Assembly (NCBI GenBank): GCA_045630365.1
Contig: JAZQSZ010000121.1
Location: 1 to 37,383, forward strand
Length of the DNA: 37,383 nt
Source of the DNA: Paludibacteraceae bacterium
Lineage (GTDB): Bacteria; Bacteroidota; Bacteroidia; Bacteroidales; Paludibacteraceae
Direction of reading: 5' to 3'
The position numbers and the translations under genes are program-made. Of the stretch, positions 10,326 through 31,945 are shown piece by piece (position 1 is the stretch's first letter; every line of letters begins with the position of its first letter). The notes under the pieces are model-generated. The model made no database searches. It saw only the letters and a program-made list of their open reading frames with translations, and had not been told where the DNA came from.

Positions 10326-10385
10326 AGTCAATAGCCCATCGCCTCTACACCCTACACTCTACGCTCTACACCCTAGACCCTACAC
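10325..10385. repeat. heptamer array at 3' end of GT4 gene
   Basis: cctatagtcaatagcccatcgcctctacaccctacactctacgctctacaccctagaccctacac. Supplies ESVGSRV plus the stop. Confidence 0.8.
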
Positions 10386-11412
10386 TTTCATATATTTCTA
10401 CAAGGCGACTTGCCACTTGTTCGTTAGAGAGTCCCATTTCAATAATTTTCTCTCGACCATTAGTCTTGCCTTCGAATGCGATGGCTTGAAGTAGTGCTTG
10501 CGCAATATCCTTTGGATCACGAGATGGAACCACATAACAGCCTTCCACTCCACTCGTTCGTTCTGCCACATCGCCTACATCCACACTCACGATTGGACAT
10601 CCGCATGCCATGGCTTCTTTGATCACTTGTGGACTACCTTCTGTCTTGCTAGTCATGAGTAGCGCATCGCAATTATACATCAACGCATTTACCTGATCAC
10701 GATTATATCCTTTGAGTTCGATGAGGTTGATGGGGCGATTGTATTCATCGTCTATTGCCCATTGCCTATTGCCCATTGCCAATAGCCCATTACCCATAGC
10801 CGAATTATAACAAGCAATTGCCTCTTTTGCAAGTTCTGGATCCTTCACCGCATTGTCAAACGCACCTGCAAATAGTACATTTTTAACATCTTTGCTCAAT
10901 ACGCTCTGGACCCACTGATTAAGAGTCAGTAGTCCTACCAACTGATTTTGCATTTCGCTCCAAGGTCTTGGAAGGTTTATGCCGCAGGGAAGAAGGGTGC
11001 TACGCTTTTGGGGGCAATTGCCCATTGCCCATTGCCCATAGCCCATAGCCAACTCAACATTCTTCTTAGATACAAAGATATTATGCGCAGAAAGGCGCAT
11101 AGCTATTTTGGAGATGCGCAGGATACTGGGCACATTGATATCGCTTCCATGATAAGTAGTCACTACAGGTGCTATACGTTGCAGGTTTGCTAATAATCCG
11201 CATAGTCCATAGTGCGCATGGATGATATCAGGGCGTTCTGCACGGATAAAGCGTCGTAGTGCAGGTAGCTCACGCAGGTAGCCGATGATACCTTTGCCGG
11301 TTACGCCATAGCGTACTATCTGCACGCCGCAAGCCTCAAGGGCAGCGATCTGCTCCTCGATGAAAGGCACGAAGTGACCGCCTTTGTCGGATGCTATGAT
11401 TAGGAGTTTCAT
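10366..11412 (-). CDS. glycosyltransferase family 4 (GT-B)
   Basis: 348 aa. C-terminal GT4 signature TSKTEGSPQVIKEAMACGCPIVSVDVGDV. Two in-frame GCCCATW-repeat insertions give peptides AMGNGLLAMGNRQWAI and AMGYGQWAMGN. The start overlaps the stop of the upstream 4HB gene (ATGA). Confidence 0.85.
   Translation of the reverse strand: MKLLIIASDKGGHFVPFIEEQIAALEACGVQIVRYGVTGKGIIGYLRELPALRRFIRAERPDIIHAHYGLCGLLANLQRIAPVVTTYHGSDINVPSILRISKIAMRLSAHNIFVSKKNVELAMGYGQWAMGNCPQKRSTLLPCGINLPRPWSEMQNQLVGLLTLNQWVQSVLSKDVKNVLFAGAFDNAVKDPELAKEAIACYNSAMGNGLLAMGNRQWAIDDEYNRPINLIELKGYNRDQVNALMYNCDALLMTSKTEGSPQVIKEAMACGCPIVSVDVGDVAERTSGVEGCYVVPSRDPKDIAQALLQAIAFEGKTNGREKIIEMGLSNEQVASRLVEIYESVGSRV
10729..10801 (-). 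repeat. in-frame GCCCATW heptamer insertion in GT4 CDS
   Basis: gatggggcgattg...attgcccattgcctattgcccattgccaatagcccattacccatagcc. Confidence 0.7.
11010..11050 (-). repeat. in-frame GCCCATW heptamer insertion in GT4 CDS
   Basis: ggggcaattgcccattgcccattgcccatagcccatagcc. Its junction ttgcccccaaaa resembles the 3' junction of the 4HB gene at 11409. Confidence 0.7.
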
Positions 11413-11798
11413 TTTTGGGGGCTATTGGCGATTGGCGATTGGCTATTGGTTCGTTGAGATTTTAAGGAACGAATCATTTTACCTATCGAATTTATTTCTA
11501 CATCTAACATTTGTCTCATTTCCTTAGATATGTAACCCAAATCTAGCGAAATATCCAATTGACAATCAATTTCCATTAAAGAACCATATGCTATATCCAA
11601 GAAGTGAGCTTGCTCCTTAAGTGCTGTACGAGATAAACCTTCTGCGATATTGGAAGGAACTGATATAACAGCCCTACGCATTTGATCCCCCAACGCATAC
11701 TTTTCTTCTGCAGGAAAATGTTTTAACAAAGCATATACCGTCACAACTAATTGCCGTGACTTTGCGTATACATCTAATTTTTTATAACTATTGTTCAT
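11409..11798 (-). CDS. four-helix-bundle protein (23S rRNA IVS / Avd-like family)
   Basis: 129 aa. KHFPAEEKYALGDQMRRAVISVPSNIAEGLSR. The C-terminal tail TNSQSPIANSPQK is encoded by the heptamer arm. Confidence 0.9.
   Translation of the reverse strand: MNNSYKKLDVYAKSRQLVVTVYALLKHFPAEEKYALGDQMRRAVISVPSNIAEGLSRTALKEQAHFLDIAYGSLMEIDCQLDISLDLGYISKEMRQMLDVEINSIGKMIRSLKSQRTNSQSPIANSPQK
11413..11450. repeat. heptamer arm, left flank / C-terminal tail of 4HB gene
   Basis: tttgggggctattggcgattggcgattggctattgg. Confidence 0.8.
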
Positions 11799-11811: not shown

Positions 11812-11908
11812 TAGCACCTATAACCCATCGCCCATAGCCAATTGCCCATAATCACCAATCACCCATAGCCAATAGCCAATCGCCCATAGCCAATAGCCCG
11901 AATGATTT
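11812..11908. repeat. heptamer arm, right flank of 4HB gene (inverted relative to 11413-11450)
   Basis: cctataacccatcgcccatagccaattgcccataatcaccaatcacccatagccaatagccaatcgcccatagccaatagccc. Confidence 0.85.
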
Positions 11909-15438: not shown

Positions 15439-17106
15439 TTATTCTAATATTTTTTTAGATTTTCGACAATATAAAATACAATCATCCTCCTTGGGACTTG
15501 GTGAGTTAACTATATACATATCAAATTCATTGGGCCAACCCCATGGCTGCATGGAAAGATCTTCGTCAATAAATGGTGATTCCCATTCATTCATCATCAT
15601 AAAATCAGGTTTCAGCATTTTACTCTTGTCAAAGAAATGAAATTGTTTTGATTGATGAAAATTTGACGAAAGGATCCCTTCTAGAGCATATACTACTCCA
15701 TATTCGGGACCTGTCGCAAAAACAACCGACTCGTTAGGTTTGTATCCATACTGACTTACAATATGTTGTATATCATTTAGATATCTTACCTGCTGTTCTG
15801 TGAGAGCTATCTCCTTAATCTGTTCGCGTCCTGTAGTGAAATGATGTCTATCATCACGCATTACGAAATCTATTCCCACTACCTTTGTTAAATAGAATAG
15901 TGCAACTGCTATGATGCCTATTTCAATTTTATTCCTTTGCAGTATAGATGCGAACCGTTCAGTGATTAGCCAATATATAATCCAACTCATCACAAACATA
16001 TGTATTCTCCCATCAAATCCTGTATTCGTTCCTACAGATGCTATTACTGGATATGCAATTAAAAATGTATAGAGTAAGCCGTTATCCTTTATTAACTTCT
16101 TTATATTAGACCAACCATTATATAGCGCAGGAATGACAAATATTGTAGAACAAACAAGCGCTACCGTCATATAATCTGGTACATAATGAGCAATCAAGAT
16201 TAAACATAATGCATAGATCAGCATGGATAAATAATTATTCTTTATATGTAGCAATTCAGATACAGCATAAGCCCCAACATAACATAACATACATACAAGC
16301 AAACTACGGATCAATCTACCAAAAGCAATTATTATCTTTGTTGGAGTATAACCCAAACCTGTTTTTGTGAAATATTGCGCAGTTTCTTGCATTGCATTAA
16401 TAATATCTGAAAGGTCATAGATAACATAGTGGATATACAGCAACGCAATAACTACACCTCCTACCCCTAATGCGATATGTATGATAAGCGTTTTACCATT
16501 ACGATAATATTTGAGGATACTAATCAATGCATAACTCACCAATACTAAAGATGCTCCTGGAAGTATAACAAAACAACCTAACATAGCAAATGTTACAGAG
16601 AGAGCGAAACATAAGTATGACACCCATCGAGTATGCACATACCAATATAGCAAAAAGAGGCACAATGATATGTTTAACAAGAAACCATGAATGGGCACAT
16701 AATTAAGTCCTGTCAGTATATTACATGCAACAGTGTGATAAGCGATAAATAATACTGTGTACACTAATGCAAAATATTTGATGAAGCGTTTTTTGTCTTT
16801 TTTAATGACACAAAGCGTGATCGTTGCAAAAACACTTGACGCAAACATCAAAATCCAAGATGCGATATGCGAATGAACCTTGTTTGTTAAATCTAGATAC
16901 GGAAACCAATCTACTGCAAAAAAGTTCCATTGCGATTTACCAGTTAGGATTCCATCTAATGCTTCTTCAGCTTTTAATAAAAAATATCCTTGGTCATACG
17001 CAGTACAAAATCCATGGCGAAATAATACAAAGCCACAATATGTAAAGCCCGCCATTAATAGAATAAGTAACAAATATATCCAATCCTTTTTCAAGATATC
17101 TTTCAT
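15439..17106 (-). CDS. large polytopic membrane protein (candidate GtrC-like/GT-C glycosyltransferase or polymerase)
   Basis: 555 aa, with more than 10 hydrophobic segments followed by a soluble C-terminal domain. Overlaps the upstream GT2 by 4 nt. Function is inferred from context only. Confidence 0.6.
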   Translation of the reverse strand: MKDILKKDWIYLLLILLMAGFTYCGFVLFRHGFCTAYDQGYFLLKAEEALDGILTGKSQWNFFAVDWFPYLDLTNKVHSHIASWILMFASSVFATITLCVIKKDKKRFIKYFALVYTVLFIAYHTVACNILTGLNYVPIHGFLLNISLCLFLLYWYVHTRWVSYLCFALSVTFAMLGCFVILPGASLVLVSYALISILKYYRNGKTLIIHIALGVGGVVIALLYIHYVIYDLSDIINAMQETAQYFTKTGLGYTPTKIIIAFGRLIRSLLVCMLCYVGAYAVSELLHIKNNYLSMLIYALCLILIAHYVPDYMTVALVCSTIFVIPALYNGWSNIKKLIKDNGLLYTFLIAYPVIASVGTNTGFDGRIHMFVMSWIIYWLITERFASILQRNKIEIGIIAVALFYLTKVVGIDFVMRDDRHHFTTGREQIKEIALTEQQVRYLNDIQHIVSQYGYKPNESVVFATGPEYGVVYALEGILSSNFHQSKQFHFFDKSKMLKPDFMMMNEWESPFIDEDLSMQPWGWPNEFDMYIVNSPSPKEDDCILYCRKSKKILE

Positions 17107-17819
17107 CTCAAATTCTTATTTATTATTCTAAAGTCTTTCAATGCTTTAACGCCAATCTTAAAGATACGCTTCATGTTGATTGAGTTGACACCGCCCTGAC
17201 GAGGACGGAATGTGATCGGATACCAACCAATGTTATAGTGCCACTTAGTAGCTATAGCTGATATCGCTACATTTGATAGATTATAATCAGTTGGCAAAAT
17301 ATCTATAATTGGCAACAACTTATCCGCCTTCATTAATCTGAAAGGCGTATTAGCATCTTTTACCCACTCATGGAACATCAGCCAAACTACAAAGCGCAAG
17401 GTCTTTGTTACAAATACACGACTAGTGCCATCTTGACGACCTCCACGTGTACCTATTTGGAAGTCATATTGTTTACGATTATCCCACATCTGCCAAAACT
17501 CCTCTGGCAACGTTTGTCCGTCGCTATCGGTTTGGAAAATATAGTCCGCATTCTCGTTAATTGCGTTGCGATATAAATGCAATAGCGTTGCACCATGGCC
17601 AGAATTGGGCTTATTGATAGGTAGTAGCAAAGGATAATCTTTTGTCAGCGTTTCCAACATTTTCCAAGTATTGTCTTTGCTACCATCATTGGCGATAACA
17701 AGTTTGGCATAATCTCCATTTTGAGTGATTCTCTCACAGACAGGATGCCATTGAGCAACAACATCCTTGATATTCGCCTCCTCGTTATACGCAGGCATGA
17801 CAATGTAAAGTGTTTCCAT
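17103..17819 (-). CDS. glycosyltransferase family 2 (polyprenyl-phosphate sugar synthase-like)
   Basis: 238 aa. YIVMPAYNEEANI, VIANDGSKDNT, QTDSDGQ (DXD-like). Confidence 0.8.
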   Translation of the reverse strand: METLYIVMPAYNEEANIKDVVAQWHPVCERITQNGDYAKLVIANDGSKDNTWKMLETLTKDYPLLLPINKPNSGHGATLLHLYRNAINENADYIFQTDSDGQTLPEEFWQMWDNRKQYDFQIGTRGGRQDGTSRVFVTKTLRFVVWLMFHEWVKDANTPFRLMKADKLLPIIDILPTDYNLSNVAISAIATKWHYNIGWYPITFRPRQGGVNSINMKRIFKIGVKALKDFRIINKNLR

Positions 17820-18705
17820 GTGTTAGATATATTTTTTTTATAATTTTATACGCATCTGTCCATACAATTCTGCTATTCCAAGCGAAATTATTTCGATCAA
17901 TTATGTTAACTATATTTGATATTTTTCTGCGCCCCCCCGTAAGCAACTCGTTTATATTCGTGCTATTGTTGGATAAGATTATAAACAAAATAGCATACAC
18001 TATAGCTGCTGGTATATTTGCCACGAGGCCTAAAAGACGAAACACTTTCGTGTGCAATAACATTATAACCACAATAGCAGCACATAACAAATATTTGTCT
18101 ATGTTAGTAGGATGTAATATTCTATACTTTAGCTTATCAGTATTATGCAATGCGTAATTAGACAGAAAACCCGAATAAAAAATAGGATAATAGTAATACA
18201 ACTCTTCTATGGTACGAAAGTCGATGTAATTTCTAATTACGATTATTGCAAAATACAGAATGGCTATATACAACATTGCATAATGCTTATAAAAGCGCAA
18301 TGAGGTTATAAGCATGCACAAAAAAATCATAGGTAAATACCATAAATGTGTTCCGTTGATTGATGTAGGTGTATTCAAACATACTAAATCAGGAAACAAA
18401 CATTTATATAGTAATGCAAAAAAAATCAACGGAAAGAGGATACGACGAACTTTAGTCCACAGGAACCTCAAGAAAGACACCTGCTTTGTTGATGCATAAT
18501 ACAATACAGCCCCTGATATAAAAGTAAACCCACACAAACCAAACATTTTTGCTTGTATGCTCATAAATTTAGCAGAATCTGAAATATGCTCAATTATTGG
18601 ATGCCCTAATGCTGGCCATTCACCATTCAAAGCGCATATCGTATGATGAAATACAATAGCGATACAAGCTAAAACACGCCAATATTGCAACAAGAGATGT
18701 CTCAC
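17785..18705 (-). CDS. acyltransferase family 3 membrane protein (probable O-acetyltransferase)
   Basis: 306 aa, polytopic. The N-terminus WRVLACIAIVFHHT resembles the acyltransferase_3 motif. The 3' end overlaps the GT2 start by 35 nt, so the C-terminus is uncertain. Confidence 0.6.
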   Translation of the reverse strand: MRHLLLQYWRVLACIAIVFHHTICALNGEWPALGHPIIEHISDSAKFMSIQAKMFGLCGFTFISGAVLYYASTKQVSFLRFLWTKVRRILFPLIFFALLYKCLFPDLVCLNTPTSINGTHLWYLPMIFLCMLITSLRFYKHYAMLYIAILYFAIIVIRNYIDFRTIEELYYYYPIFYSGFLSNYALHNTDKLKYRILHPTNIDKYLLCAAIVVIMLLHTKVFRLLGLVANIPAAIVYAILFIILSNNSTNINELLTGGRRKISNIVNIIDRNNFAWNSRIVWTDAYKIIKKIYLTHGNTLHCHACV

Positions 18706-19100
18706 TTATTCGCTTGCTTAAAAGTAATAAACTTGTTAAGTAGATATTGTGTTAACGCTACAACTACAATCGTTATCAATTTGCACACAAACTCATTCCA
18801 ATGGGCAAAATCAACCATTATGTACAACATCAACGTGCTTATTCCAAGTCCTGTTAAGCCAACGGTATAAAACGACAAAGCGCGTTTTAGAGTGCGATCT
18901 TTGACTTTAAAATTAAAATGTCTATTAAGAAAAAACGATATTAAGATACCGATATGTATGCTGATCACATTAGCCCATAGATAAGGCATCATTTCAAAAT
19001 GACACAATAATGTATATACAGCAAAGTCCAACGAAGAACAAAATCCACCTATGATGGCATATAAAATAAGATTACGAAAACGATAGTACAATCCTTTCAT
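18702..19100 (-). CDS. GtrA-family membrane protein
   Basis: 132 aa with four hydrophobic helices. The N-terminus LILYAIIGGFCSSLDFAVYTLL is typical of GtrA-like proteins. A canonical promoter sits immediately upstream. Confidence 0.8.
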   Translation of the reverse strand: MKGLYYRFRNLILYAIIGGFCSSLDFAVYTLLCHFEMMPYLWANVISIHIGILISFFLNRHFNFKVKDRTLKRALSFYTVGLTGLGISTLMLYIMVDFAHWNEFVCKLITIVVVALTQYLLNKFITFKQANK

Positions 19101-19222: not shown

Positions 19223-20380
19223 TCACTTAATCAGCGCTTGCTTCACCGCACTCCCCCACTTCATCACCTGTCTTTTTGCTTTTAGCATCCATATTGGTGT
19301 TTTGTATGTTCGTTTCACGCTCTCAGGCTGCTTACTCCAATCTACTTTCGCCAGTTCTTGAGTCGCTATACCGTGATACTCCTTGCTTAGCCAATATTCG
19401 AGCAGGCCGTTGACGCGAAGTTTGTCTAGCAAACGACGCCAATCGTCGTTTGTTGGTTTATAGGTTATAGGTGATAGGTTATAGGCATTGGTATCGGCTT
19501 TGCTGATTTCCTCACCTTTAATCTTTAAACTCTCACCTATAGTCTCCTCCATGCGGAAGAGCATATGATGCTCTGGAGCATGGAGATTTCTCGTCGCTCT
19601 CAATGTAGCAGGTACATCATTATTATACCATGCTAATGCTTCGTTTAAGAATGCCACTTTATATTGCATTGCTATCTTTGACCATAGCAAGAAGTCTTCA
19701 CCAAGTTTAATACCCAAAGGAAATCCTCCCACTTCTTTAAACACCTTACGTGGAACGGCAACAGAGATAGACGTAACAGGCATAGAATCACCTTCGTAAT
19801 AAGCCTTTGGGTAATTGAAATATCCTGTTTCTATGTTATTAACGGCAACACGTGTTTTACCAGGTTTGTAATACACATAGTTGCATGCATATAGTCCCGC
19901 CTCTGGATAATCCTCAATAAGCTTCGCCATCTTCTCAAGGTAGGTAGGTTCCCACCAGTCGTCGGCGTCGAGGAAGGCGATGTAGTCGCCGCTGCTAGCC
20001 GCTACGCCCGAATTGCGGGCTGCGCTGACGCCAGCGTTCGATTGAGTGATCAAACGAACGCTAAGTTTATAGTTTATAGGTGATAGGTTAGAGGTAATTA
20101 GTTTATAGTTTATAGGTGATAGGTTAGAGGCATTGGTTTCAGCTTCGCTGTCTTCCTCGCCTTTAACCTTTAATCTATAACCTTTAACCTCATCTCTCTC
20201 GCCTTTAACCTTTAATCTTTCATCTATAAACTGTTGAACTATACTAGCAGAGTCATCCGTTGATCCATCGTCCACAACGATGAGTTCGTAGTCGGTATAT
20301 GTCTGTGCAAATACAGAATCAAGCGCCTTACGGATGTAAGGTGCTTTGTTGTACAGTGGTATGATGATCGAGAATTTCAT
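19223..20380 (-). CDS. glycosyltransferase family 2, interrupted by two in-frame palindromic elements
   Basis: 385 aa. FSIIIPLYNKAPYIRKALDSVFAQTYTDYELIVVDDGSTDDS, then a 56-codon repeat-encoded insert before GVSAARNSG...FLDADD. Confidence 0.85.
   Translation of the reverse strand: MKFSIIIPLYNKAPYIRKALDSVFAQTYTDYELIVVDDGSTDDSASIVQQFIDERLKVKGERDEVKGYRLKVKGEEDSEAETNASNLSPINYKLITSNLSPINYKLSVRLITQSNAGVSAARNSGVAASSGDYIAFLDADDWWEPTYLEKMAKLIEDYPEAGLYACNYVYYKPGKTRVAVNNIETGYFNYPKAYYEGDSMPVTSISVAVPRKVFKEVGGFPLGIKLGEDFLLWSKIAMQYKVAFLNEALAWYNNDVPATLRATRNLHAPEHHMLFRMEETIGESLKIKGEEISKADTNAYNLSPITYKPTNDDWRRLLDKLRVNGLLEYWLSKEYHGIATQELAKVDWSKQPESVKRTYKTPIWMLKAKRQVMKWGSAVKQALIK
19455..19542 (-). repeat. in-frame palindromic element in GT2 CDS
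   Basis: Arm ggtttataggttataggtgataggttatagg, core cattggtatcggctttgctgatttcctcacc, arm tttaatctttaaactctcacctatag. Encodes SLKIKGEEISKADTNAYNLSPITYKP. Confidence 0.85.
20063..20230 (-). repeat. in-frame palindromic element (duplicated arms) in GT2 CDS
   Basis: Left arm duplicated (agtttatagtttataggtgataggttagagg x2), core cattggtttcagcttcgctgtcttcctcgcc, then a long CTTTAAC/CTATAAC arm. Encodes KVKGERDEVKGYRLKVKGEEDSEAETNASNLSPINYKLITSNLSPINYKL. Confidence 0.85.
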
Positions 20381-20412
20381 TCTCTCTTAGTTTAAAGTTT
20401 ATAGGTTATAGT
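20381..20412. repeat. heptamer arm (TTTATAG flavour) downstream of 4HB gene
   Basis: tctcttagtttaaagtttataggttatagttt. Confidence 0.75.
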
Positions 20413-20772
20413 TTATAGGCAAGGGTTACGCTTTGCACGGAGCGATGATAACATTTTACCTATTTCATTAACCATTGTTTCTATTTGTTTGTAATCTTCG
20501 ATTGTTATATATTCTAAATCTTTTGCGATATCCATTTGAGCAAGTACCTCCATCAAAGAACCAAAAGCAATATTGATAAAATGTGCTTGTTCTTTTTCAG
20601 CAGTACGCCCCATGCCTTCTGCAATATTGGACGGAATGGATATTACAGCTCTACGCAGTTGATCGCACAAAGCGAATCTTTCATCTGCAGGAAATCCTTT
20701 TATTTTAGCATATACCAACTTAACCAAATCTTTGGATAATTGATATACTATTAAATTCTGAAAATGTGCCAT
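20413..20772 (-). CDS. four-helix-bundle protein (23S rRNA IVS / Avd-like family)
   Basis: 119 aa. KGFPADERFALCDQLRRAVISIPSNIAEGMGR. Confidence 0.9.
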   Translation of the reverse strand: MAHFQNLIVYQLSKDLVKLVYAKIKGFPADERFALCDQLRRAVISIPSNIAEGMGRTAEKEQAHFINIAFGSLMEVLAQMDIAKDLEYITIEDYKQIETMVNEIGKMLSSLRAKRNPCL

Positions 20773-20822
20773 TTCTTCTAGTTTATAGGTTAAAGATTAG
20801 AGGTTAGAGGCGATGGGCCTAA
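20773..20822. repeat. heptamer arm between 4HB and AAA ATPase genes
   Basis: ttcttctagtttataggttaaagattagaggttagaggcgatgggcc. Supplies the ATPase C-terminus and stop. Confidence 0.75.
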
Positions 20823-22044: not shown

Positions 22045-22154
22045 TTATTTACTAGCTTTTAATCTCTAACCTATCGCCTCTAACCTCTAACCTATAACCT
22101 CTCACCTATAATCTTTAACCTATAACCTATAATCTATCACCTATAATCTTTAAC
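22045..22154. repeat. heptamer array (CCTATAA/CTTTAAC), inverted relative to 20381-20412
   Basis: taatctctaacctatcgcctctaacctctaacctataacctctcacctataatctttaacctataacctataatctatcacctataatctttaacc. Confidence 0.9.
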
Positions 22155-23153
22155 CTATAACCGAAACCATTTCTCTAACTTGAAAAGCACTCTCTCCACA
22201 AAATACACCAACGGATACAACTTCCATCTCCTCAAGCGCTTCATCTGCTCCATTTCAAACGCATGCGTATCATAATCCCACAGCACCGCTGGTGGCATCA
22301 GTTCCTCCAATACTTGTCTTCTCTCTTTATTTCGCAACGCTAGATTGGTCTCACTTATTCCCCCATCATCAAATATCGTCACATCTATATCCACATACAC
22401 TGGTTTCACTCTACCCAATCCTATCGCTTGCAGATACCACTTCCAATCACTCACAATCTTCAGACTCTCATCATACAAGCCATATTCTTCAAACAGATCC
22501 TTGCGGATATATGCACAATCATGGTTAAGGGTTGATTGATAGAATTGACATAACGAATACTCGGTATAACCACTTTTACCTACTATTTGACCAGCGGCAT
22601 TGACTTTCGTCATGTTGCCGTAGAAAATTGGTGTATTTAGTTTATAGTTTATAGATGATAGGTTATAGGCATTGGTATCAGCTCTGCTGTTTTCTTCACC
22701 TTTAATCTTTAAACTATCACCTTTAATCTCAGCGCATTGCGCAGCAAGCGCTGCCATCATTCTCTCAGTCACATCAGGCGCAGCCAATATATCGCCTGAA
22801 TTTAATATCTGAATATACTCCCCCGTCGCCATCTTAATGCCTTTATTCATGGCATTGTAAATGCCCTTATCCTTTTCGGATACCCATATAACCTTATGCG
22901 CAGGATTTTGGTGTGGATAGTCTTCCTTGTTCCCTTCTGCGCAGGATTTTAGCGAGGCATCTATCTCCCCTTCTTTCAGGAAGGGGCTGGGGGTAGGCTT
23001 GTAGATCTCCAAGACCTCTACCGACCCATCGGTGGAGCCACCATCTACAATAATATGTTCGATATTGGGATATGTTTGTGCAGCAACAGAGGCGAGCGTT
23101 TTGCGCAGTCCTTCGGCGTTATTGTAGTTGATGGTTATGATGGAGAGTCTCAT
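22155..23153 (-). CDS. glycosyltransferase family 2 with in-frame repeat insertions
   Basis: 332 aa. LSIITINYNNAEGLRKTLASVAAQTYPNIEHIIVDGGSTDGS. Insert peptides are PSPFLKEGE (GC hairpin) and IKGDSLKIKGEENSRADTNAYNLSSINYKL (palindromic element). Confidence 0.85.
   Translation of the reverse strand: MRLSIITINYNNAEGLRKTLASVAAQTYPNIEHIIVDGGSTDGSVEVLEIYKPTPSPFLKEGEIDASLKSCAEGNKEDYPHQNPAHKVIWVSEKDKGIYNAMNKGIKMATGEYIQILNSGDILAAPDVTERMMAALAAQCAEIKGDSLKIKGEENSRADTNAYNLSSINYKLNTPIFYGNMTKVNAAGQIVGKSGYTEYSLCQFYQSTLNHDCAYIRKDLFEEYGLYDESLKIVSDWKWYLQAIGLGRVKPVYVDIDVTIFDDGGISETNLALRNKERRQVLEELMPPAVLWDYDTHAFEMEQMKRLRRWKLYPLVYFVERVLFKLEKWFRL
22636..22730 (-). repeat. in-frame palindromic element in GT2 CDS
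   Basis: Arm tttagtttatagtttatagatgataggttatagg, core cattggtatcagctctgctgttttcttcacc, arm tttaatctttaaactatcacctttaatctc. Confidence 0.85.
22965..23002 (-). repeat. GC-rich hairpin motif inserted in-frame (ccccttc...gaagggg + ctggggg)
   Basis: ctccccttctttcaggaaggggctgggggtagg encodes PTPSPFLKEGE. A related copy at 13372-13412 encodes LPFRGGFRRGF. Confidence 0.6.
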
Positions 23154-23226
23154 ATTTCTGTTTCGTAGATATATGTTTGCATATTGTAATTAATGGCTTT
23201 CGTCGTATATTGATTATTTATTTACA

Positions 23227-24264
23227 TTATGATTGATGCTTATTATAATACCACTTTGCTAAAGGATAGAATAAGCGTGGATGATTTATCATGAATGTCT
23301 GTAGTACACGTTTTATATACGGTTTCAATGCATAATTCCATCCTGCAACTTTAATCCAAGCATAATCTAAAGGATATACGTCCTCTTGCCTAAAGTCATT
23401 TAGTATCTTTTTATACTCCCTATAGGTAAGTTTGGCACTTACTGCCTGTCTCAATGTACACACCCAGCGCATGTATTTGAGGCGTTCGAAAGGGAAATTC
23501 TGATTAGGACAATGAGCAACTATAAATGCTTTTCGATGTTTAATGGCTAATAATCCACTCTGAATCAACAATTTTTGACGTTCAATAGGTTGGCTATGCG
23601 TATGGCTATAATCTGATGACGTATAATAATTATATAATGGCAAATTGGTAATCACCACTTGTGATGCTACACTATAAAATGCTCCCATAAACGCATCATC
23701 TTCGCGTAAGTGTAAATCTGTGAAGAAACGGACATCATTTTCTTTTATAGTTGATGTTTTGAATACGGCATCTACCACATGATAATCTGAAATATCGTAT
23801 CTATTAAGGGCCTGAGCCTTACCAGAAATAATCTCTACATTAAATTCAAAATCTTTTAGAGAATTATATACACATGGAGCATCATGGTTCAATGAATGTA
23901 TCTTATATTTTACTATATCTGCTTGATGTTTTTCTGCCAAATCAATCATTTGCCCAAGTCCATCTTTTGACAAATAGTCATCCGCATCCACAAAAACGAT
24001 GTATTTACCTCTCGCATTATCAATCCCAAGATTACGTGCAGAGGATACACCACCATTCGGTTTGTTAATTAAACGTACATTATGGTGAGTAGTTGCATAT
24101 TGTTCAACAACCTCTACACCATTATCTTTGCTGCCATCATTAACAACAATTATTTCACTATCCTGATAATCTATACTATCCATACAACGCACAATTACAG
24201 GGGCGCAATTATACATTGGGATAACAACTGACAATAAAGGATTATTTGAAGATGTATCTTGCAT
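23227..24264 (-). CDS. glycosyltransferase family 2
   Basis: 345 aa. LSVVIPMYNCAPVIVRCMDSI, IIVVNDGSKDNG, VFVDADD. Confidence 0.85.
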   Translation of the reverse strand: MQDTSSNNPLLSVVIPMYNCAPVIVRCMDSIDYQDSEIIVVNDGSKDNGVEVVEQYATTHHNVRLINKPNGGVSSARNLGIDNARGKYIVFVDADDYLSKDGLGQMIDLAEKHQADIVKYKIHSLNHDAPCVYNSLKDFEFNVEIISGKAQALNRYDISDYHVVDAVFKTSTIKENDVRFFTDLHLREDDAFMGAFYSVASQVVITNLPLYNYYTSSDYSHTHSQPIERQKLLIQSGLLAIKHRKAFIVAHCPNQNFPFERLKYMRWVCTLRQAVSAKLTYREYKKILNDFRQEDVYPLDYAWIKVAGWNYALKPYIKRVLQTFMINHPRLFYPLAKWYYNKHQS

Positions 24265-25237
24265 GATTGACTATTTTTAGAAATGAACCAATAGGATATA
24301 GCAACAAACATGATAAATTAGGATATTGTATCAAAAACCTTACGATTCCATCCCAATTCATTGCCTGTAATTTTGACAAAGTACTACCTAAATGACGATA
24401 AAATTTACTATAGTCATCTACTTTCCATACTTTCATCATTCCTTTAATGATATTTTGCCTTCCATCTTCCAACATTGTGGTTGCAAATATGATGGACTTG
24501 TCTTTATATGATTGAGCGTCACGAATTTTTCTATAACCAAATTTTATCCAATCTGCTCTATTGATGAAATGCTGACTATGCGTAATTGAAATTGGATTCA
24601 TAACCCAAGTATATATCGGAATATTGAGAATTCCTATTCGATTAGCATGTATCCAATGCCATGCTATCCAATCAGAATCTTCCATAACAACATTTTCTTC
24701 GTATGGTCTTGAGACCTTTTGCAAGAACTCGCGCCTATAGAGATTCGCCCAAGGAGCCAGATTGTATCCTGCTATAAAATATTGCTCACAAAACTCTTTT
24801 CCAGATATGGTCAATCGATTACCATCGTTAATGCCATATTCAATTATATCACCATTCTCTTTTTGAATGTTATAATGGCATGCAAGCATATCAACTTTGT
24901 TATCTATGGCAAACAATAGTGCTTTTATGGCTTCTTGAGTATTGATAAAATCATCTTGATCAGCAAATGCGATATATTCTCCTTTCGCTAATTGAATGCC
25001 TGTATTTTTAGCTCCACCCTGTCGTTTATTGATTGTATGGCGAATAACTTGGATATTATTGTATTTAGTGGTATATTCAACTAATACACTTTTTGCAGAC
25101 ACGGGCGAACAATCATCAACAACAATTATCTCATATTCGCTTTCTTTCAATTCTACAGACAATATACTATCTATACATGTTAAGATAGAATCTTGTCCAT
25201 TATAAAAGGGTATAATATATGAAATTATTTTTCTCAT
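24242..25237 (-). CDS. glycosyltransferase family 2
   Basis: 331 aa. ISYIIPFYNGQDSI, IIVVDDCSP, FADQDD. Confidence 0.85.
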   Translation of the reverse strand: MRKIISYIIPFYNGQDSILTCIDSILSVELKESEYEIIVVDDCSPVSAKSVLVEYTTKYNNIQVIRHTINKRQGGAKNTGIQLAKGEYIAFADQDDFINTQEAIKALLFAIDNKVDMLACHYNIQKENGDIIEYGINDGNRLTISGKEFCEQYFIAGYNLAPWANLYRREFLQKVSRPYEENVVMEDSDWIAWHWIHANRIGILNIPIYTWVMNPISITHSQHFINRADWIKFGYRKIRDAQSYKDKSIIFATTMLEDGRQNIIKGMMKVWKVDDYSKFYRHLGSTLSKLQAMNWDGIVRFLIQYPNLSCLLLYPIGSFLKIVNHARYIFK

Positions 25238-25245
25238 TCTTAAAA

Positions 25246-26151
25246 TTAATTACTCATTTGGTTTCTACGTCTTTGAGTTGCTCTATATTTTATTTTTGCG
25301 CCATAAAGAATCACAATACAAATCCCCCATATATGTAACATTATATTGGAAATTTTTATACTATTTAAACCATATAACCAATAATGAAAATCTATAAACC
25401 TCTTCTCCTTCTCAGGTAAAGCCATACGACATCGACAATATGCATATTCAAGAAAAGATAATTTTAGTTGGCGAGTACTTTTTGATGATATAGAATGCAT
25501 ATTCGTTCTTACAGTACTTGAATTCCAAGAATACTCTCCCTCTGGAAGCAAATAAGTAAATCTAATATTTGGATTTTTCCAGAATAAATAACACAATGTT
25601 AATTGATCCCTCCGTGTGTACTCAATATATAAGTCCCACCACATTTTATTTATATTCTTAACGACATCATTGTGCGTACGGAATATGATATTATTTTCAT
25701 AAAGTCCATTATGCCGTGGGAAATTATCCTTTCTTAGGAAATGACACCACTTGTATATATTTTCCTTAGTTTCTAAGTCATAGATTGCATAAGCTTCTTC
25801 GTAAATACAGTCTCTCTTTGGATGCTTTATTCCTGCCCAGTCTATCTTATGCTCATAGCATTCTACAACTCTGTCATAAATTCTTTGCCCTATAATTTGG
25901 ATATTTGCATCAATATATAAAGATGCTTCGTATTCTGCTAATAATTGATTAGGATGCATTTTAGGATAACGACTTTGACGAGTCTTATCTTGATTCTTAT
26001 AAGGTATTGACCTTACTTGCCAAACACCAATACTCTCTTTTTCTAGGTCATCAGTAAATAGAACATAGTCAAAACGATCATCAACAACAAGTGGTTGTTG
26101 AACGACATCGTATCCTCCTGTTTGGACCGTATATACTACAAATTGATTCAT
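25246..26151 (-). CDS. DUF616-like glycosyltransferase-domain protein with C-terminal TM segment
   Basis: 301 aa. The N-terminus VVYTVQTGGYDVV...YVLFTD resembles DUF616. Hydrophobic C-terminus (MLHIWGICIVILYG). Confidence 0.55.
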   Translation of the reverse strand: MNQFVVYTVQTGGYDVVQQPLVVDDRFDYVLFTDDLEKESIGVWQVRSIPYKNQDKTRQSRYPKMHPNQLLAEYEASLYIDANIQIIGQRIYDRVVECYEHKIDWAGIKHPKRDCIYEEAYAIYDLETKENIYKWCHFLRKDNFPRHNGLYENNIIFRTHNDVVKNINKMWWDLYIEYTRRDQLTLCYLFWKNPNIRFTYLLPEGEYSWNSSTVRTNMHSISSKSTRQLKLSFLEYAYCRCRMALPEKEKRFIDFHYWLYGLNSIKISNIMLHIWGICIVILYGAKIKYRATQRRRNQMSN

Positions 26152-26687
26152 AATTCTTTTGAAAATAAGTCCAACAGATATTTTCTTTTTTCTTCGTAGG
26201 GAAGAGAATTCATATACATAAAATCATCCTTATGCTTTCTTCTGTATTCGTCTAATGTACAAATTATTCTACAAGGATTACCAGCTGCTACTACATTTGC
26301 AGGGATATCTCTATTCACCAAACTACATGCTCCTATAATTGAATTATCACCAATATGTACATTGGCTAATATTGTGCTTCTACAACCAATAAAACAATTC
26401 TTACCTATTACAATTGGTCCAAAATAGCCAGTTTCTGGATTACCATCAGGTAGATTTCTAATTACACGCGTAGCAGCATCATGAGTGACAAATGCGACAT
26501 CAAAACTAATCGTAGTGTTATCACCTATCTTTATTAGATATGGTTCAGACCCCCACCATGGTTTTGTAACTATATCAACATTATCACCTAAAACCACTCC
26601 AAGTGACTTTGCCTCTTGTAAAACAGGTTTCACGTCGAACAACCAATTTCTTAATATTCTTTTAATTTTCTTAAATTTGAATGTCAT
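26148..26687 (-). CDS. hexapeptide-repeat (left-handed beta-helix) O-acetyltransferase
   Basis: 179 aa. IGKNCFIGCRSTILANVHIGDNSIIGACSLVNRDIPANVVAAGNPCRII. Confidence 0.85.
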   Translation of the reverse strand: MTFKFKKIKRILRNWLFDVKPVLQEAKSLGVVLGDNVDIVTKPWWGSEPYLIKIGDNTTISFDVAFVTHDAATRVIRNLPDGNPETGYFGPIVIGKNCFIGCRSTILANVHIGDNSIIGACSLVNRDIPANVVAAGNPCRIICTLDEYRRKHKDDFMYMNSLPYEEKRKYLLDLFSKEL

Positions 26688-26706
26688 TTTTATATTAAAT
26701 AAAATA

Positions 26707-27741
26707 TTACATTATTTTATAGTTTTTGTACCAACTTATGAACGATGAAAGCCCTTTATGCAGAGACCATAGAGGTTTATATCCCATATCTTCTTCAAGA
26801 TGAGAAGTATCTGCATTAGTTTGATAGACATCACCTGGTTGCATTGGTAAGAAATTTTTAATTGCTTCTTTGCCATAAGCAAGTTCTAATTCTGAAATAA
26901 AATCCATAAGTTTAATTGGATTACTACAACCTATGTTATATACCTTATGAGGTACATTATGAAGACATTTATTCATATCCAAAATGTAATCGACTGCCCG
27001 AATTGTTCCTTCTACGATATCATCAATATAAGTAAAATCACGTATCATATCGCCATTATTAAACACTTTGATAGGTTTACCCTCTCGTAGTGCATCTGCA
27101 AACAACATAGGAGACATATCTGGTCTTCCCCAAGGACCATAAACAGTAAAATAACGTAAACCTATTGTCTGAAAACCGTATAGTTTACTATAACAATGCG
27201 CCATCAATTCGTTTGATTTCTTGCTAGCAGCATAAAGACTTACAGGTGTATCAACCTTGTCATCTTCACTATATGGTACTTTATCATTCATGCCATACAC
27301 AGACGAAGATGAAGCAAAAACTAATTTTGGTATGCTAAAATTCCTGCAAGCTTCCAAAATATTTAAGAACCCAAGCAAATTACTCTGCATATAGGCATAT
27401 GGGTTTGTAATACTATAACGTACACCAGCTTGGGCTGCAAGATTGACAACAACATCAAAATGTGATTGTTCAAACAACGCATCTAATGACACCTTGTCAT
27501 CTATTGATAATCTTATAAATTTAAAATTGGAATAAACATCTGAAGTACACACTTCACCAAAGGGAATATTTATATCGTCACTTTTCACTCCTAAGAGTTC
27601 ACGAAGACGAGCATATTTCAGACGAACATCGTAGTAATCATTGATATTATCTATACCAATAACTTCATCTCCACGTTGTGCCAACATCTGACTCAATTTT
27701 GAGCCGATAAATCCAGCTGCTCCTGTAACTAAGATTTTCAT
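26707..27741 (-). CDS. NAD-dependent epimerase/dehydratase (UDP-glucuronate 4-epimerase-like SDR)
   Basis: 344 aa. MKILVTGAAGFIGS Rossmann motif and YAASK catalytic motif. First gene of the glycan operon, with a canonical promoter upstream. Confidence 0.85.
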   Translation of the reverse strand: MKILVTGAAGFIGSKLSQMLAQRGDEVIGIDNINDYYDVRLKYARLRELLGVKSDDINIPFGEVCTSDVYSNFKFIRLSIDDKVSLDALFEQSHFDVVVNLAAQAGVRYSITNPYAYMQSNLLGFLNILEACRNFSIPKLVFASSSSVYGMNDKVPYSEDDKVDTPVSLYAASKKSNELMAHCYSKLYGFQTIGLRYFTVYGPWGRPDMSPMLFADALREGKPIKVFNNGDMIRDFTYIDDIVEGTIRAVDYILDMNKCLHNVPHKVYNIGCSNPIKLMDFISELELAYGKEAIKNFLPMQPGDVYQTNADTSHLEEDMGYKPLWSLHKGLSSFISWYKNYKIM

Positions 27742-27779
27742 AATAGAAATATTGCTAAATTCTTTACTTTTTTACGCGA

Positions 27780-27811
27780 CAAAGGTAGTCATTTTTTTTG
27801 GATTACACAAA
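27780..27811 (-). promoter_or_regulatory. promoter of the glycan operon
   Basis: On the minus strand: TTTG, N20, TAccTTTG. The -7 box lies about 38 nt upstream of the epimerase ATG. Confidence 0.55.
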
Positions 27812-27889
27812 TATCTATGATATTTTGTGGAAAAATGGTGTGATTTTGGCGAGAATTACGGGATTTTGTATCTTTTTAGCCAACAGATG

Positions 27890-28005
27890 GTTCACATTTT
27901 GTTTTGCTTCCCCAAATGCGACATAATAGAGCAAAACACAAAAGTGGTCATGTTATTCTTAATTATTCTTAAAGCGCAGCGTATTCTTGACTAAATAAAT
28001 TCCAG
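27890..28005 (+). repeat. intergenic repeat family B, partial copy 4
   Basis: Hairpin gttttgct...agcaaaac followed by acaaaagtggtcatgttattcttaattattcttaaagcgcagcgtattcttgactaaat, matching 6520-6590. Confidence 0.7.
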
Positions 28006-28054
28006 TACGTAATTACCACCTAATTCTCCCACTCGCGACATCTATGATATAGAT

Positions 28055-28139: not shown

Positions 28140-28847
28140 TTACACTTTACACTTTACGCTTTCTAACTGCCTCAAAGCAATATCTCTAATCTGCCCGACT
28201 CGCTCCTTACTTACGCCTATCAACATCGCCACTTCTTGCAGACTCATAACATCTCGCACCCCCATTCCATACAGCAATTGCACTACCATTCTCTCTCGTC
28301 TCGGCAACTGTTTCAATGCGGCATAAACACCCTGCTTTATTTCCTCGCTAATCATCATGTTTTCTGCCGACTCATATGACGCACTACCTAGCACATTCGT
28401 CTCATCCACTACCATATCGGCATGACAAATATACTCCTCGTCATCTTCAAACACTTTACTATCCAGCATCAGCAACTCCTCTGACTTATTTTGCACAAAT
28501 AGCAATATCCTGTTCTTGATACACTCTGTGGCAAAACTAGCAAAACTATATCCTAACGACGCATCAAAGCAGTCTACCGCTTTTATCAGTCCGATATTGC
28601 CCTCTTGTATCAAGTCCAACACCTCTGCTTTATGCCTAAATTTTGAGTTTTTCGCCATACTCACTACCAGTCGTAAGTACGACTCTATTAGCACCTTTCT
28701 GGCTTCCATATCACCTTGACTCATACGTTCTATTACTGCGTATTCTTCTTGTTCAGTTAACATTTTGTATCTTGCCACTTCCTGTGAATACCAATCCAAT
28801 GGCGACTTCTCTGCTTCAAAATTCATAATACTTAATTTAAAATTCAT
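28140..28847 (-). CDS. sigma-70 family RNA polymerase sigma factor (non-ECF, group-3-like size)
   Basis: 235 aa. Region 2 LRLVVSMAKN...DLIQEGNIGLIKAVDCFD and region 4 LPRRERMVVQLLYGMG...LQEVAMLIGVSKERVGQIRDIALRQL. The start could instead be M8 at 28826. The C-terminal VKCKV and the stop come from a heptamer arm. Confidence 0.85.
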   Translation of the reverse strand: MNFKLSIMNFEAEKSPLDWYSQEVARYKMLTEQEEYAVIERMSQGDMEARKVLIESYLRLVVSMAKNSKFRHKAEVLDLIQEGNIGLIKAVDCFDASLGYSFASFATECIKNRILLFVQNKSEELLMLDSKVFEDDEEYICHADMVVDETNVLGSASYESAENMMISEEIKQGVYAALKQLPRRERMVVQLLYGMGVRDVMSLQEVAMLIGVSKERVGQIRDIALRQLESVKCKV

Positions 28848-29172
28848 AATTCATAATTCGTAATTCAATTTTCTCTCCGCGCTTTAGCGCTTTCTTTACC
28901 CGTTGACGCACTCTTTGGTGCATCTCTTTGGTTTTCAACACTAATCCCTTTAGTTCATAGACTCCCAAAGAAATCTCTCCTTTCACGCTTTTCATAGGTC
29001 CATTACCCTGCATAAAATATCGGTTAAAGTCCTTCTTCGTCACTTTGTATTCCCCGCACGGTCGATGTTTTGCAGGATGCTCTACGGTGTCACAGACTTT
29101 CTTGCCGTTGATATGGCATTCGCCATCAACGCCCCAACTGGAGAAATGTTTTCGTTTGATTTCAATATTCAT
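28837..29172 (-). CDS. hypothetical protein (possibly DUF5675-like)
   Basis: 111 aa. The pattern WGVDGECHINGKKVCDTVEHP...CGEYKV recalls DUF5675-type proteins; this is from memory only and is weak. Confidence 0.5.
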   Translation of the reverse strand: MNIEIKRKHFSSWGVDGECHINGKKVCDTVEHPAKHRPCGEYKVTKKDFNRYFMQGNGPMKSVKGEISLGVYELKGLVLKTKEMHQRVRQRVKKALKRGEKIELRIMNYEF

Positions 29173-29215
29173 AATTTTTAGTTTAGTGTTGAGTGTTTAG
29201 TGTTGAGTGAAGTTA
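29173..29215. repeat. heptamer arm (GTGTTKA flavour) between hypothetical gene and primase
   Basis: tttagtttagtgttgagtgtttagtgttgagtgaagttaagag. Confidence 0.7.
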
Positions 29216-30122
29216 AGAGTTGAGAGGTTGACCAAAGGTCGCTGAAGTCTTTACAGGTGGATGGAAGTTGATGCCTCACCAACTGCGGCAACCTCTTCTG
29301 CAATTCCCAGAACAACCGCTCCCCCGGTTCATCCTGGTCCGGATACATATGCAGATTCAGTCCTTTCAGCGGCACCAGATCCTCCTCCTTCAGCATACTA
29401 GCAGATGGTATCGCTATTGCTTTCCTGCCCGATGACAACATCGCCCAGCAGTCCGAACAACCTTCCGTTATCCACAACTCCTCGCCTGGGTATAACAATC
29501 TCAGCACCTGCAGGTTATATACATGACAACTCGCACCTCTCGGAAACCGAAATCTCGGTTTATCCTCCTTACCCAAGTACCGCGACTGCACACTCATCAA
29601 ACTGCCATCTGCACCATAATACGGTATCAACAACGATGGCGCATCGTAGAATGCTTTTCCATACCGCCAGCAGGGTGTAGGCACATCTATCGAACTCAAT
29701 CGGCACCATCTCACCACGCGCTCATCTATCCGCCTACTAGCCAACCACTCCTGTGCTTCCTGGTTCAGTTTCGGTATCGCCACCAGACTCTGCAGATAAG
29801 GCACATCTGCCTTATATTCCTTACTTTTCGCCACTTCGTTTATTTGCCTCATCGCCTCAAATACCATCGGTCCTCCAAGCCATTCACACGCTTCCTTAAA
29901 CCCACATCCTTTCAACCCCATCACCATATCTATCACTCCCCCGTGCGCATCGCATACGTAACATCTATACCGATTCCTCCTTGTGTCAAAACTCAAACTT
30001 GGATGTCTATCCTCGTGCCACGGACAGCGACTTTTGTGTCTTATTACTTGCAGACCTAATCGTTCTGCTACCATCTCGATCGGAGTATTATTCAACTCCT
30101 GTATTTTCCATTTCTCTATCAT
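29178..30122 (-). CDS. DNA primase-like protein (CHC2 zinc finger + Toprim)
   Basis: 314 aa. CPWHEDRHPSLSFDTRRNRYRCYVCDAHGGVIDMV is a DnaG-type CHC2 finger. LWITEGCSDCWAM...YPDQDEPG is Toprim-like. Confidence 0.85.
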   Translation of the reverse strand: MIEKWKIQELNNTPIEMVAERLGLQVIRHKSRCPWHEDRHPSLSFDTRRNRYRCYVCDAHGGVIDMVMGLKGCGFKEACEWLGGPMVFEAMRQINEVAKSKEYKADVPYLQSLVAIPKLNQEAQEWLASRRIDERVVRWCRLSSIDVPTPCWRYGKAFYDAPSLLIPYYGADGSLMSVQSRYLGKEDKPRFRFPRGASCHVYNLQVLRLLYPGEELWITEGCSDCWAMLSSGRKAIAIPSASMLKEEDLVPLKGLNLHMYPDQDEPGERLFWELQKRLPQLVRHQLPSTCKDFSDLWSTSQLLTSLNTKHSTLN

Positions 30123-30157
30123 AGTTCTTTATTGTTCTTATATTCAATTTGTTGTCT

Positions 30158-31609: not shown

Positions 31610-31626
31610 AATTCTCTGATTATCTT

Positions 31627-31944: not shown

Positions 31945-31945
31945 A

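Follow-up and report, generated by a model that had tools for sequence, protein, structure and literature searches.

A stretch of 37,383 nt from a Paludibacteraceae bacterium (GCA_045630365.1, contig JAZQSZ010000121.1, positions 1-37,383, forward strand; hereafter the window) carries, within its polysaccharide-biosynthesis genes, short palindromic elements that are inserted in frame and share a conserved 33-nt core. We propose that they form a Bacteroidota family of in-frame hairpin repeats with microsatellite arms, comparable with the Rickettsia palindromic elements (RPEs), whose members are probably neutral or selfish passengers of permissive protein loops. The layout of the element is a G-type array of heptamers, the core, and a C-type array. 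In the window, cores are found in three genes of the minus strand: GT2a (19223-20380), encoding a family 2 glycosyltransferase (GT2), GT2b (22155-23153), also a GT2 gene according to Pfam, and a FemAB/GNAT-like gene (8746-9900). A GT4 gene of the same strand (10366-11412) carries heptamer arrays without a full core.

A degenerate pattern of the core has exactly five matches in the window, all on the minus strand, and none in 100 dinucleotide shuffles; an independent repeat search groups four copies of ~99 nt (family D7). These are the five copies noted in a first-pass annotation, whose quoted cores are exact and whose peptides are recovered by translation of the intact open reading frames (ORFs). 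Its claim of a single orientation and reading frame is borne out as well: every core begins at a codon boundary (GGN, encoding glycine) on the strand of its host gene. The copies span 73-168 nt. At site 1 of GT2a, a composite element (20063-20230, core 20129-20161, encoding approximately residues 56-106) has a doubled left arm (AGATTAAAGGTTAAAGGCGAG twice) and a right arm with a 36-nt tandem duplication. The element at site 2 (19455-19542, core 19484-19516) encodes approximately residues 281-308. GT2b contains an element at its mid site (22636-22730, core 22668-22700), which varies among orthologs, and at its N-terminal site a degenerate insert (22896-23000) that follows the DGGSTDGS motif and comprises a different palindrome, CCCCTTC-CTGAAA-GAAGGGG. 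In the FemAB-like gene, the site A element (9412-9503, core 9442-9474) has GTGTAGA and CTACGCC arm flavours, and that of site B (9652-9724, core 9664-9696) has three to five GGCAATG units in its left arm and a CAAC/GTTG tip stem. The two arm-only segments previously reported in the GT4 gene are real heptamer arrays detected by Tandem Repeats Finder (TRF): site 1 (11010-11050; TRF 11017-11050) contains 4.5 GGCTATG/GGCAATG units and a terminal palindrome GGGCAATTGCCC, and site 2 (10729-10801; TRF 10754-10801) also holds a reduced core (GACGATGAATACAATCGCC). The encoded loops are hydrophilic and follow the pattern ...LKVKG-EExSxAxTNA-xNLSPINYK...; GEEDSEAETNASNLSPINYK is an example of a peptide spanning an insert junction.

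Other small perfect palindromes lie in frame in the same genes: one at 22950-22990 in the N-terminal site of GT2b, a separate 8-bp hairpin (GAGTCGCA-AGAG-TGCGACTC, 9728-9747, minus strand) read in the FemAB-like ORF next to the site B element, and TCCCT-TC-AGGGA at FemAB site A of the related contig L009. The loops of these genes thus appear to collect several kinds of hairpin inserts.

Comparison with homologs identifies the segments as lineage-specific insertions, as the first-pass annotation had proposed. GT2a homologs of 41-60% identity, from a library of representatives at 50% identity, lack both of them. In a solved GT2 structure (5hea), chain residues 7-63 correspond to residues 3-57 of GT2a and chain residues 62-229 to residues 108-267; as chain residues 63 and 62 abut, residues 58-107 of GT2a have no counterpart. 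Among 120 orthologs of 61-87% identity, site 1 is empty (a 13-aa segment) in 17, arm-only in several, occupied by a reduced core in some, and full in the rest, so that a universal presence in orthologs, which would have spoken against insertion, is not the case. The lengths of site 1 include the series 28, 35, 42, 49, 56, and 63 aa, with a step of 7 aa, that is 21 nt or three heptamers. Site 2 is occupied in 120 of the 120 orthologs, but its arm flavours vary, and in some an insert of unrelated type ("QQHQQQ") stands there instead. A second, unrelated family of in-frame inserts, encoding "EILNQQHQQQKLTTIPLATTQRAAGEREM" or "NKIKQQHQQHNINNPSVVEQH", replaces the heptamer-armed element at the same permissive sites, namely site 2 of GT2a in ~18 orthologs (e.g., P0024, P0080, and P0086) and the mid site of GT2b in contig L016.

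The FemAB-like, GT4, and GT2b sites also show empty, arm-only, and full states across related contigs (designated by the prefix L; all related sequences are metagenome-assembled genomes, MAGs, or metagenome contigs). At FemAB site A, a right-arm remnant alone is left in L013, and the palindrome of L009 is a different one; at site B, L013 has no insert ("VENNGKLRAV") and L022 has a CAGC/GCTG tip. At site 1 of the GT4 gene, L007 has a full core element, the window its arm-only array, and L020 no insert; at site 2, a full core element is present in L015 and none in L007. In GT2b, the mid site carries other variants in L018, L019, and L022 and a much shorter segment in L020, and the N-terminal site carries full core elements in L016 and L019 and an arm remnant alone in L020 and L022.

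The inserts are predicted to form disordered loops of the GT-A fold. An AlphaFold2 model of GT2a based on 79 homologs has a mean predicted local distance difference test (pLDDT) score of 61.9, with values of 75-89 in the GT-A core, and Foldseek confirmed the fold. The score falls below 50 at residues 58-104 and 262-309. Both inserts are located in low-confidence loops of the predicted structure, onto which the first-pass annotation had suggested mapping them; site 1 lies between a helix (44-55) and a strand (106-112). The GT2a ORF is intact, its Pfam match being cut in two by an insert, and an exact-protein look-up returned no entry on record for it. The insert-bearing orthologs all retain their catalytic motifs unchanged (DDGS, DADD, and others), which answers the objection that the host genes might be pseudogenes.

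Eight independent genic sites can be compared: sites 1 and 2 of GT2a and of the GT4 gene, the N-terminal and mid sites of GT2b, and sites A and B of the FemAB-like gene. All are occupied in sense orientation and in phase 0, in which the GGN of the core is a codon. With six equally likely choices of orientation and frame, agreement of the seven remaining sites with the first would have a probability of (1/6)^7, or ~4e-6. The bias inferred from the window copies is thus present at 8/8 sites, but it is largely explained by stop codons, which close the other frames. In phase 0, none of the 14 genic copies inspected (core +/-27 nt) has a stop, and stops are found in nearly all copies in the other five frames (1-8 each, with four exceptions in 70 copy-frames). 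Intergenic copies usually contain one or two stops even in phase 0 (e.g., GGCTAGG). Similarly, pure heptamer arrays have a stop at every third unit, and the genic arms use variants that avoid it (CCTATCA for CCTATAA, GTGTATA for GTGTAGA). The presence of stops in intergenic copies and their absence from genic ones reflect purifying selection on a translated sequence, and not necessarily targeted insertion. The inserts are probably translated as part of the host protein, the conservation of the frame within genes pointing to read-through rather than excision.

The arms are imperfect tandem 7-nt units of several flavours. On the sense strand, the 5' arm is of the G type (GGTTAAA, GTGTAGA, GGCAATG) and the 3' arm is its approximate complement (CCTATAA, CTACACC, CATTGCC). 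The outer parts of the core (GGCGAGG ... CCAATGCC) are heptamer-like too, and its unique centre is ~18 nt long. The arms are not terminal repeats specific to the element but heptamer microsatellites, with which the spacers between the genes of the locus are filled as well: TRF detected 31 period-7 arrays in the window, amounting to 4.0% of its bases and mostly intergenic. Plasmid records gave nothing but 28-nt matches of 96% identity to a CCTATAA-type arm, at 14 places of a Serratia marcescens plasmid (AP028496.1); we judged them unrelated, probably heptamer iterons.

Pairing statistics over 29 distinct copies support the hairpin. At its tip, a 4-bp stem closes a GNA-type triloop, with the consensus cAGC-GAA-GCTg that includes GCGAAGC. 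This stem is paired in 98% of cells, with a change from A-U to G-C in six copies and from G-C to A-U in one, and between two orthologous copies, window 9696 and L022 13545, the difference is exactly one compensatory double change. The arms are paired in 65% of cells versus 31-44% in slid controls, and the covariation score is above all 500 shuffles. The arms pair imperfectly, in a periodic manner, and an A·C mismatch is conserved. RNA-folding z-scores range from -1.4 to -5.6 for the window copies, the best hairpin of the five being FemAB site A (z = -5.6). Of the arm/core/inverted-arm build described in the first-pass annotation, the core and the inverted arrangement therefore stand, but the arms are imperfect 7-nt tandem units that pair moderately, and the right arm of the site B element is nearly gone. 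We rejected a selection against stems in ORFs, as intergenic copies are not better paired than genic ones (0.60 vs 0.67 Watson-Crick).

Further copies were found in Paludibacteraceae MAGs and metagenome contigs only. Over one genome per GTDB species, the core pattern matched three Paludibacteraceae MAGs and four GC-rich genomes; these four of the seven genome matches have no arms and were attributed to chance. The arm-plus-core pattern retrieved 12 contigs from JGI metagenome records, 11 of them from one project, and pattern scans of viral contigs and phage records gave no copy of the element. A profile search of the kind proposed earlier (nhmmer) on the window and related contigs, whose loci were fetched via orthologs, gave 35 copies, 31 of them unique. 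In the whole-collection DNA scans with the strict core pattern, every genic copy belonged to a GT2a, GT2b, GT4, or FemAB-like gene from a single type of locus. Intergenic copies occur in ~4 contexts: upstream of the FemAB-like gene, beside an IVP gene (see below), between small genes in the neighbourhood of a DUF5675 gene, and in L003. From this strict pattern and a collection of related sequences with no complete genome, the family looks low-copy and, within genes, locus-specific.

Copies at different sites can be nearly identical. The mid-site copy of GT2b in L018 and the N-terminal-site copy in L019 differ at 2 of 61 nt, the intergenic copies of L008 and L017 at 3 of 61, and the window GT2b copy differs from copies of GT2a site 2 at 3-5 of 61. 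A CGGC/GCCG tip is common to GT2b, FemAB, and intergenic copies of one metagenome. Conversely, some copies at orthologous sites differ by 15-20 nt. The combination of near-identical non-homologous copies and divergent orthologous ones indicates that sequence moves between sites, by transposition-like copying or gene conversion.

These observations lead us to the following scenario. The element is made, on the transcribed strand, of a 5' G-rich heptamer array and the 33-nt core (GGC...GCC), then an internal loop and a tip stem of 4 bp with its GNA-type triloop, and finally the complementary C-rich array. Its sequence is transferred from one site to another, either in a transposition-like event or through gene conversion, and its arms would lengthen or shorten through slippage or duplication of heptamer units. 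A genic copy would persist only in a permissive surface loop, in sense orientation, in the single frame that can be freed of stops, and with a length multiple of three. The surviving copy would be read as a disordered hydrophilic loop tolerated by the enzyme. The elements would thereby turn polysaccharide genes into hot spots of in-frame length variation, of frameshift inactivation by gain or loss of one or two heptamers, and of rearrangement.

Several observations weigh against this scenario. Copies are very few per genome, and the genic ones do not extend beyond four gene families in a single type of locus, a distribution that local gene conversion fits as well as or better than genome-wide transposition; it is drawn entirely from MAG and metagenome contigs, without a complete genome among them. 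No target-site duplication is visible when occupied and empty sites are compared, in sequences that have diverged and whose boundaries are blurred. The termini are not fixed, the number and flavour of arm units being variable, and Pfam and NCBIfam identified no transposase, RAYT, or other mobilizing enzyme in the window or related loci, where the arrays are accompanied by no genes other than IVP and AAA_14. Arm flavours are often mixed, and systematic A·C and T·C mismatches make the hairpins weak in several copies. Lastly, translation is deduced from the integrity of the ORFs only. For want of a target-site duplication or machinery, the selfish mobility claimed in the first-pass annotation is kept here as a proposal.

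Several disrupted alleles surfaced in a peptide-profile search, which returned 14 short ORFs, missed known GT2a orthologs, and is therefore uninformative on host range. In L024, the FemAB-like gene is split and has exactly one CTTACAC unit fewer than in L009 (-7 nt). In L028, GT2a is split by the loss of two units (-14 nt). In L025-27, representing seven contigs from several samples, GT2a is cut off inside the 33-nt core (remnant at 6001-6141 of L025) and a different GT2 gene follows. The arms are thus prone to slippage and the elements mark rearrangement joints. An alternative explanation is that the heptamer arms are kept in glycosyltransferase genes as contingency switches, 7-nt slippage flipping surface-polysaccharide genes off and on, with hairpin and core being incidental. 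Natural alleles shorter by exactly one or two heptamers with the gene split at that place agree with it, as do in-frame alleles differing by three heptamers and the nature of the hosts, since surface-polysaccharide transferases are a classic phase-variable class. Heptanucleotide repeats control phase variation of pglE in Neisseria. However, the genic arrays have just 3-5 units, and imperfect ones, so that slippage is slowed; much longer versions of these arrays stand in intergenic DNA, which has no frame to shift; and slippage needs neither a conserved core nor an inverted arrangement. The frameshift alleles come from a search biased toward short ORFs, one of the contigs has a coverage of 1.2x, and the split alleles may be plain pseudogenes. 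These alleles are compatible with selected phase variation and with decay alike, and we consider contingency switching an unlikely reason for the existence of the elements.

Inverted pairs of arrays also bracket entire genes, among them some encoding four-helix-bundle, bAvd-like proteins of the PF05635 family ("23S_rRNA_IVP", here IVP). The window contains four IVP genes according to Pfam, at 2378-2755 (plus strand) and at 8107-8466, 11409-11798, and 20413-20772 (minus strand), and the eight ends of these four genes all abut short-period repeat arrays. Arrays at both ends are likewise found for the IVP genes of L003 (2058-2426), L017 (148-510), L025 (3268-3639), and L028 (70-438). In the sense direction, the usual polarity is a G-type array 5' and a C-type array 3', the same as in the short element. 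The largest intergenic array, 38 units of GTGTAGR on the sense (minus) strand at 8487-8753, is located upstream of an IVP gene and has an inverted match at 8032-8061. Upstream of IVP2, a G-type array (11827-11899, minus strand) has its inverted partner at 11420-11449, the 3' end of the IVP2 ORF. Another G-type array (GGTTATAGG..., 22060-22162, minus strand) is the inverted partner of 20776-20817 and 20388-20418; together, these arrays flank an AAA_14 plus IVP insertion between GT2b and GT2a, a block that is absent in L020 and L022. More generally, related contigs differ in whether an IVP cassette stands between conserved neighbour genes. The 3' ends of IVP genes consist of ACCCAATGCC or ACCCTTGCC followed by a C-type array, thus resembling the right third of the core; IVP3 (20413-20772, minus strand) ends in this way with ...ACCCTTGCC. 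Two genes depart from the usual polarity: IVP3, with C-type arrays on both sides, and IVP4, with unrelated 22/36-nt direct repeats. Arrays of this 22/36-nt unit (CCACTTTCGTGAGCGMAGCGAA) lie on either side of the IVP gene at 2378-2755 (2267-2364 and 2774-3026) and form direct repeats of 86% identity; each unit includes the GCGAAGC mini-hairpin motif.

This bracketing suggests that the short elements might be miniature IVP cassettes, a relation that would mirror the one between long and short intervening sequences (IVSs) of rRNA. The full unit would be a PF05635 gene between a G-type and a C-type array, and the 33-nt-core element would be its internally deleted, non-autonomous form, as a MITE (miniature inverted-repeat transposable element) is to its parent transposon. 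The arrays at the eight window ends and in the four other contigs, their polarity, the likeness of IVP 3' ends to the right third of the core, and the insertion polymorphism of the cassettes are consistent with such a derivation. Against it, the left and central parts of the core show no similarity to the sequence at the 5' junctions of the cassettes, the unrelated direct repeats flank one of the IVP genes, the common "ATGCC" piece is heptamer-like and could be convergent, and no catalytic activity is known for the PF05635 family; a literature search on the mobility of this family turned up nothing relevant. We regard a miniature-cassette origin as doubtful. A broader reading, which we find equally speculative, is that the core hairpins are non-autonomous members of an undescribed Bacteroidales mobile system whose full units are array-bracketed PF05635 cassettes. 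The system would colonize operon spacers and, in miniature form, protein loops; IVP or a host factor would recognize the arrays or hairpins, and the arms would double as slippage switches and recombination joints diversifying surface-polysaccharide loci.

Could the elements instead be functional stem-loops, either RNA or single-stranded DNA, acting as RNase III processing or stability signals like the rRNA intervening sequences or REP, with the genic copies regulating the host mRNA? The compensatory changes of the tip stem, the covariation of the arms, and the bracketing of entire genes by inverted arrays would be expected in this case, as would the orientation of the copies, all 35 of which, including those of ~4 independent intergenic sites, are co-oriented with local transcription. 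The intergenic co-orientation alone is, however, not significant (~4 sites, p ~0.06). The antisense strand folds better than the sense in 5/5 window copies, and wobble-compatible mismatches favour it by 91 versus 35, so that the G-U wobble test gave no support for a structured sense-strand RNA. The pairing data are equally compatible with folded RNA and with folded single-stranded DNA. A role as intrinsic terminator was rejected: terminator-like sites are not enriched (9 vs 9.4 expected), just one weak match overlaps a core tip, and no U-tract is present. At gathering score, Rfam identified only a tRNA in the window, and it gave nothing below E = 0.4 at 19400-20300. Cleavage within ORFs would destroy the mRNA, yet the host genes are conserved. 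We consider a regulatory stem-loop quite improbable. Finally, the recruitment of the encoded peptide (KGEExSxAxTNA and its flanks) as a linker or interaction loop selected at the protein level, although it would agree with the filling of GT2a site 2 in all 120 orthologs and with the identity of the peptide IGESLKIKGEEISRADTNAYNLSPITYKP in many orthologs of 70-80% identity, is barely credible in view of the unrelated peptides found at the same site elsewhere (TPYTLHHTP, SQLPIANRP, and QQHQQQ types), the same sequence with stop codons in intergenic DNA, a conservation that is nucleotide-level with inverted-repeat symmetry, and the predicted disorder of the inserts.

The polysaccharide-biosynthesis locus, mostly on the minus strand, fills most of the window (ORFs 4844-32326), and Paludibacteraceae MAGs are the nearest public relatives. 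According to Pfam, the window comprises several GT2 genes, the GT4 and FemAB/GNAT-like genes, DUF354, UDP-galactopyranose mutase, GtrA, acyltransferase, and epimerase genes, as well as two AAA_14/DUF4143 and the four IVP genes. GC content is 0.31-0.37 at 16000-19000 and 23000-28000 versus 0.40-0.48 elsewhere, and the glycosyltransferase and modification genes of these segments are devoid of elements and arrays; the locus resembles a mosaic in which older genes, laden with elements, are combined with more recent acquisitions. An intergenic module of ~290 nt is repeated at least four times (4511-4662, 6297-6926, 9915-10372, and 27954-28027) and is also found in L022 (7965-8275), with 94% identity between 6640-6926 and 10086-10372. 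It contains small hairpins and a promoter-like motif of the Bacteroidetes type (TTTG ... TAnnTTTG, "GATTTTTGTATATTTTTGTAG") and may be a promoter cassette repeated inside the operon. The block at 28140-32326 encodes sigma-70-like, DUF5675, and primase-type zinc-ribbon proteins and proteins of 441 and 128 aa of unknown function. Heptamer arrays are abundant in this block, which may be a mobile or phage-derived region; its counterparts in L002, L008, and L011 hold intergenic copies of the core element.

Among known systems, RPEs are the closest in behaviour. In the summary of Ogata et al. 2000 given in PMC10969869, they are palindromic, inserted in frame, translated within the host protein, and compatible with its fold, with 44 insertions in unrelated genes of R. 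conorii. As far as this summary describes them, the present elements are like RPEs in being short palindromic repeats (~90-170 nt; the many-copy RPEs have ~100-150 bp) located in frame in unrelated coding genes at fold-tolerant places, here 8/8 genic sites and low-confidence loops of a GT-A fold, in having copies in non-coding DNA, and in lacking a known mobilization mechanism. They differ by the phylum, by arms that are heptamer microsatellites of variable number and flavour and not unique sequence, by a conserved part of just 33 nt, and by frameshift alleles arising from the arms; the likeness is one of behaviour. The resemblance to RPEs put forward in the first-pass annotation thus holds for in-frame, tolerated palindromes, but not for a spread across many unrelated genes: copies are few (5 in the window, 35 in total), and by the strict core pattern, in a collection with no complete genome, the genic ones belong to GT2a, GT2b, GT4, and FemAB-like genes of one polysaccharide locus. 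Given the Paludibacteraceae host, descent from RPEs is very unlikely. The family has no Rfam match and we found no description of it in the literature searched, in agreement with the novelty for Bacteroidota suggested previously; a search for heptamer or in-frame palindromes of Bacteroidales and Prevotella was without relevant match, and "BrickBuilt", a Porphyromonas gingivalis MITE with a 22-23-bp minisatellite, is not this element.

The arms, though not the whole core element, recall the heptanucleotide repeats (STRR; TAACTGA) of cyanobacteria, Beggiatoaceae, and some Bacteroidetes including Paludibacter, which are also abundant tandem 7-nt intergenic units, often just upstream of start codons and sporadically distributed (PMC4679880). 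Those are direct repeats of one sequence and nearly always intergenic (PMC4679880), unlike the several flavours described here, which form inverted pairs around a core or genes and lie in frame within ORFs. MITE, REP, and ERIC sequences share the small size, non-coding nature, inverted ends, and hairpin potential, and occasional in-frame intragenic copies are known for ERIC and some MITEs (PMC10969869). They differ from our elements, whose ends are variable heptamer arrays and not defined terminal inverted repeats, with no target-site duplication seen in the diverged sequences compared and no cognate transposase, RAYT, or related autonomous element found by Pfam and NCBIfam in the window and related loci. 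As in the contingency loci of Neisseria, Haemophilus, and Campylobacter, tandem repeats of a unit that is not a multiple of three are found in surface-glycan transferase genes, with alleles frameshifted by whole units; here, the repeats are short, imperfect, and inverted around a core, the arrays are mainly intergenic, and the variation is known from alleles alone. The IVSs of 23S rRNA, with or without a PF05635 ORF, likewise have inverted repeats around a short loop or a PF05635 gene, lie inside a transcribed functional gene, and are polymorphic for presence, but their hosts are rRNAs and not mRNAs or operon spacers.

To our knowledge, palindromes that lie in frame and code for protein have been considered almost exclusive to Rickettsia. 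An unrelated second example, from a free-living lineage of gut Bacteroidales, would make the phenomenon recurrent, with many natural intermediates on offer, from empty and arm-only to full, duplicated, and frameshifted sites. For annotation, the inserts split Pfam matches and give split-gene calls in MAGs. The bracketing of PF05635 genes by arrays is a starting point for tests on a protein family that is very common and whose function is unknown. The microsatellite arms join in these elements three processes that are as a rule investigated separately: the spread of selfish repeats, the emergence of new protein loops, and the hypermutable switching or shuffling of surface-polysaccharide genes.

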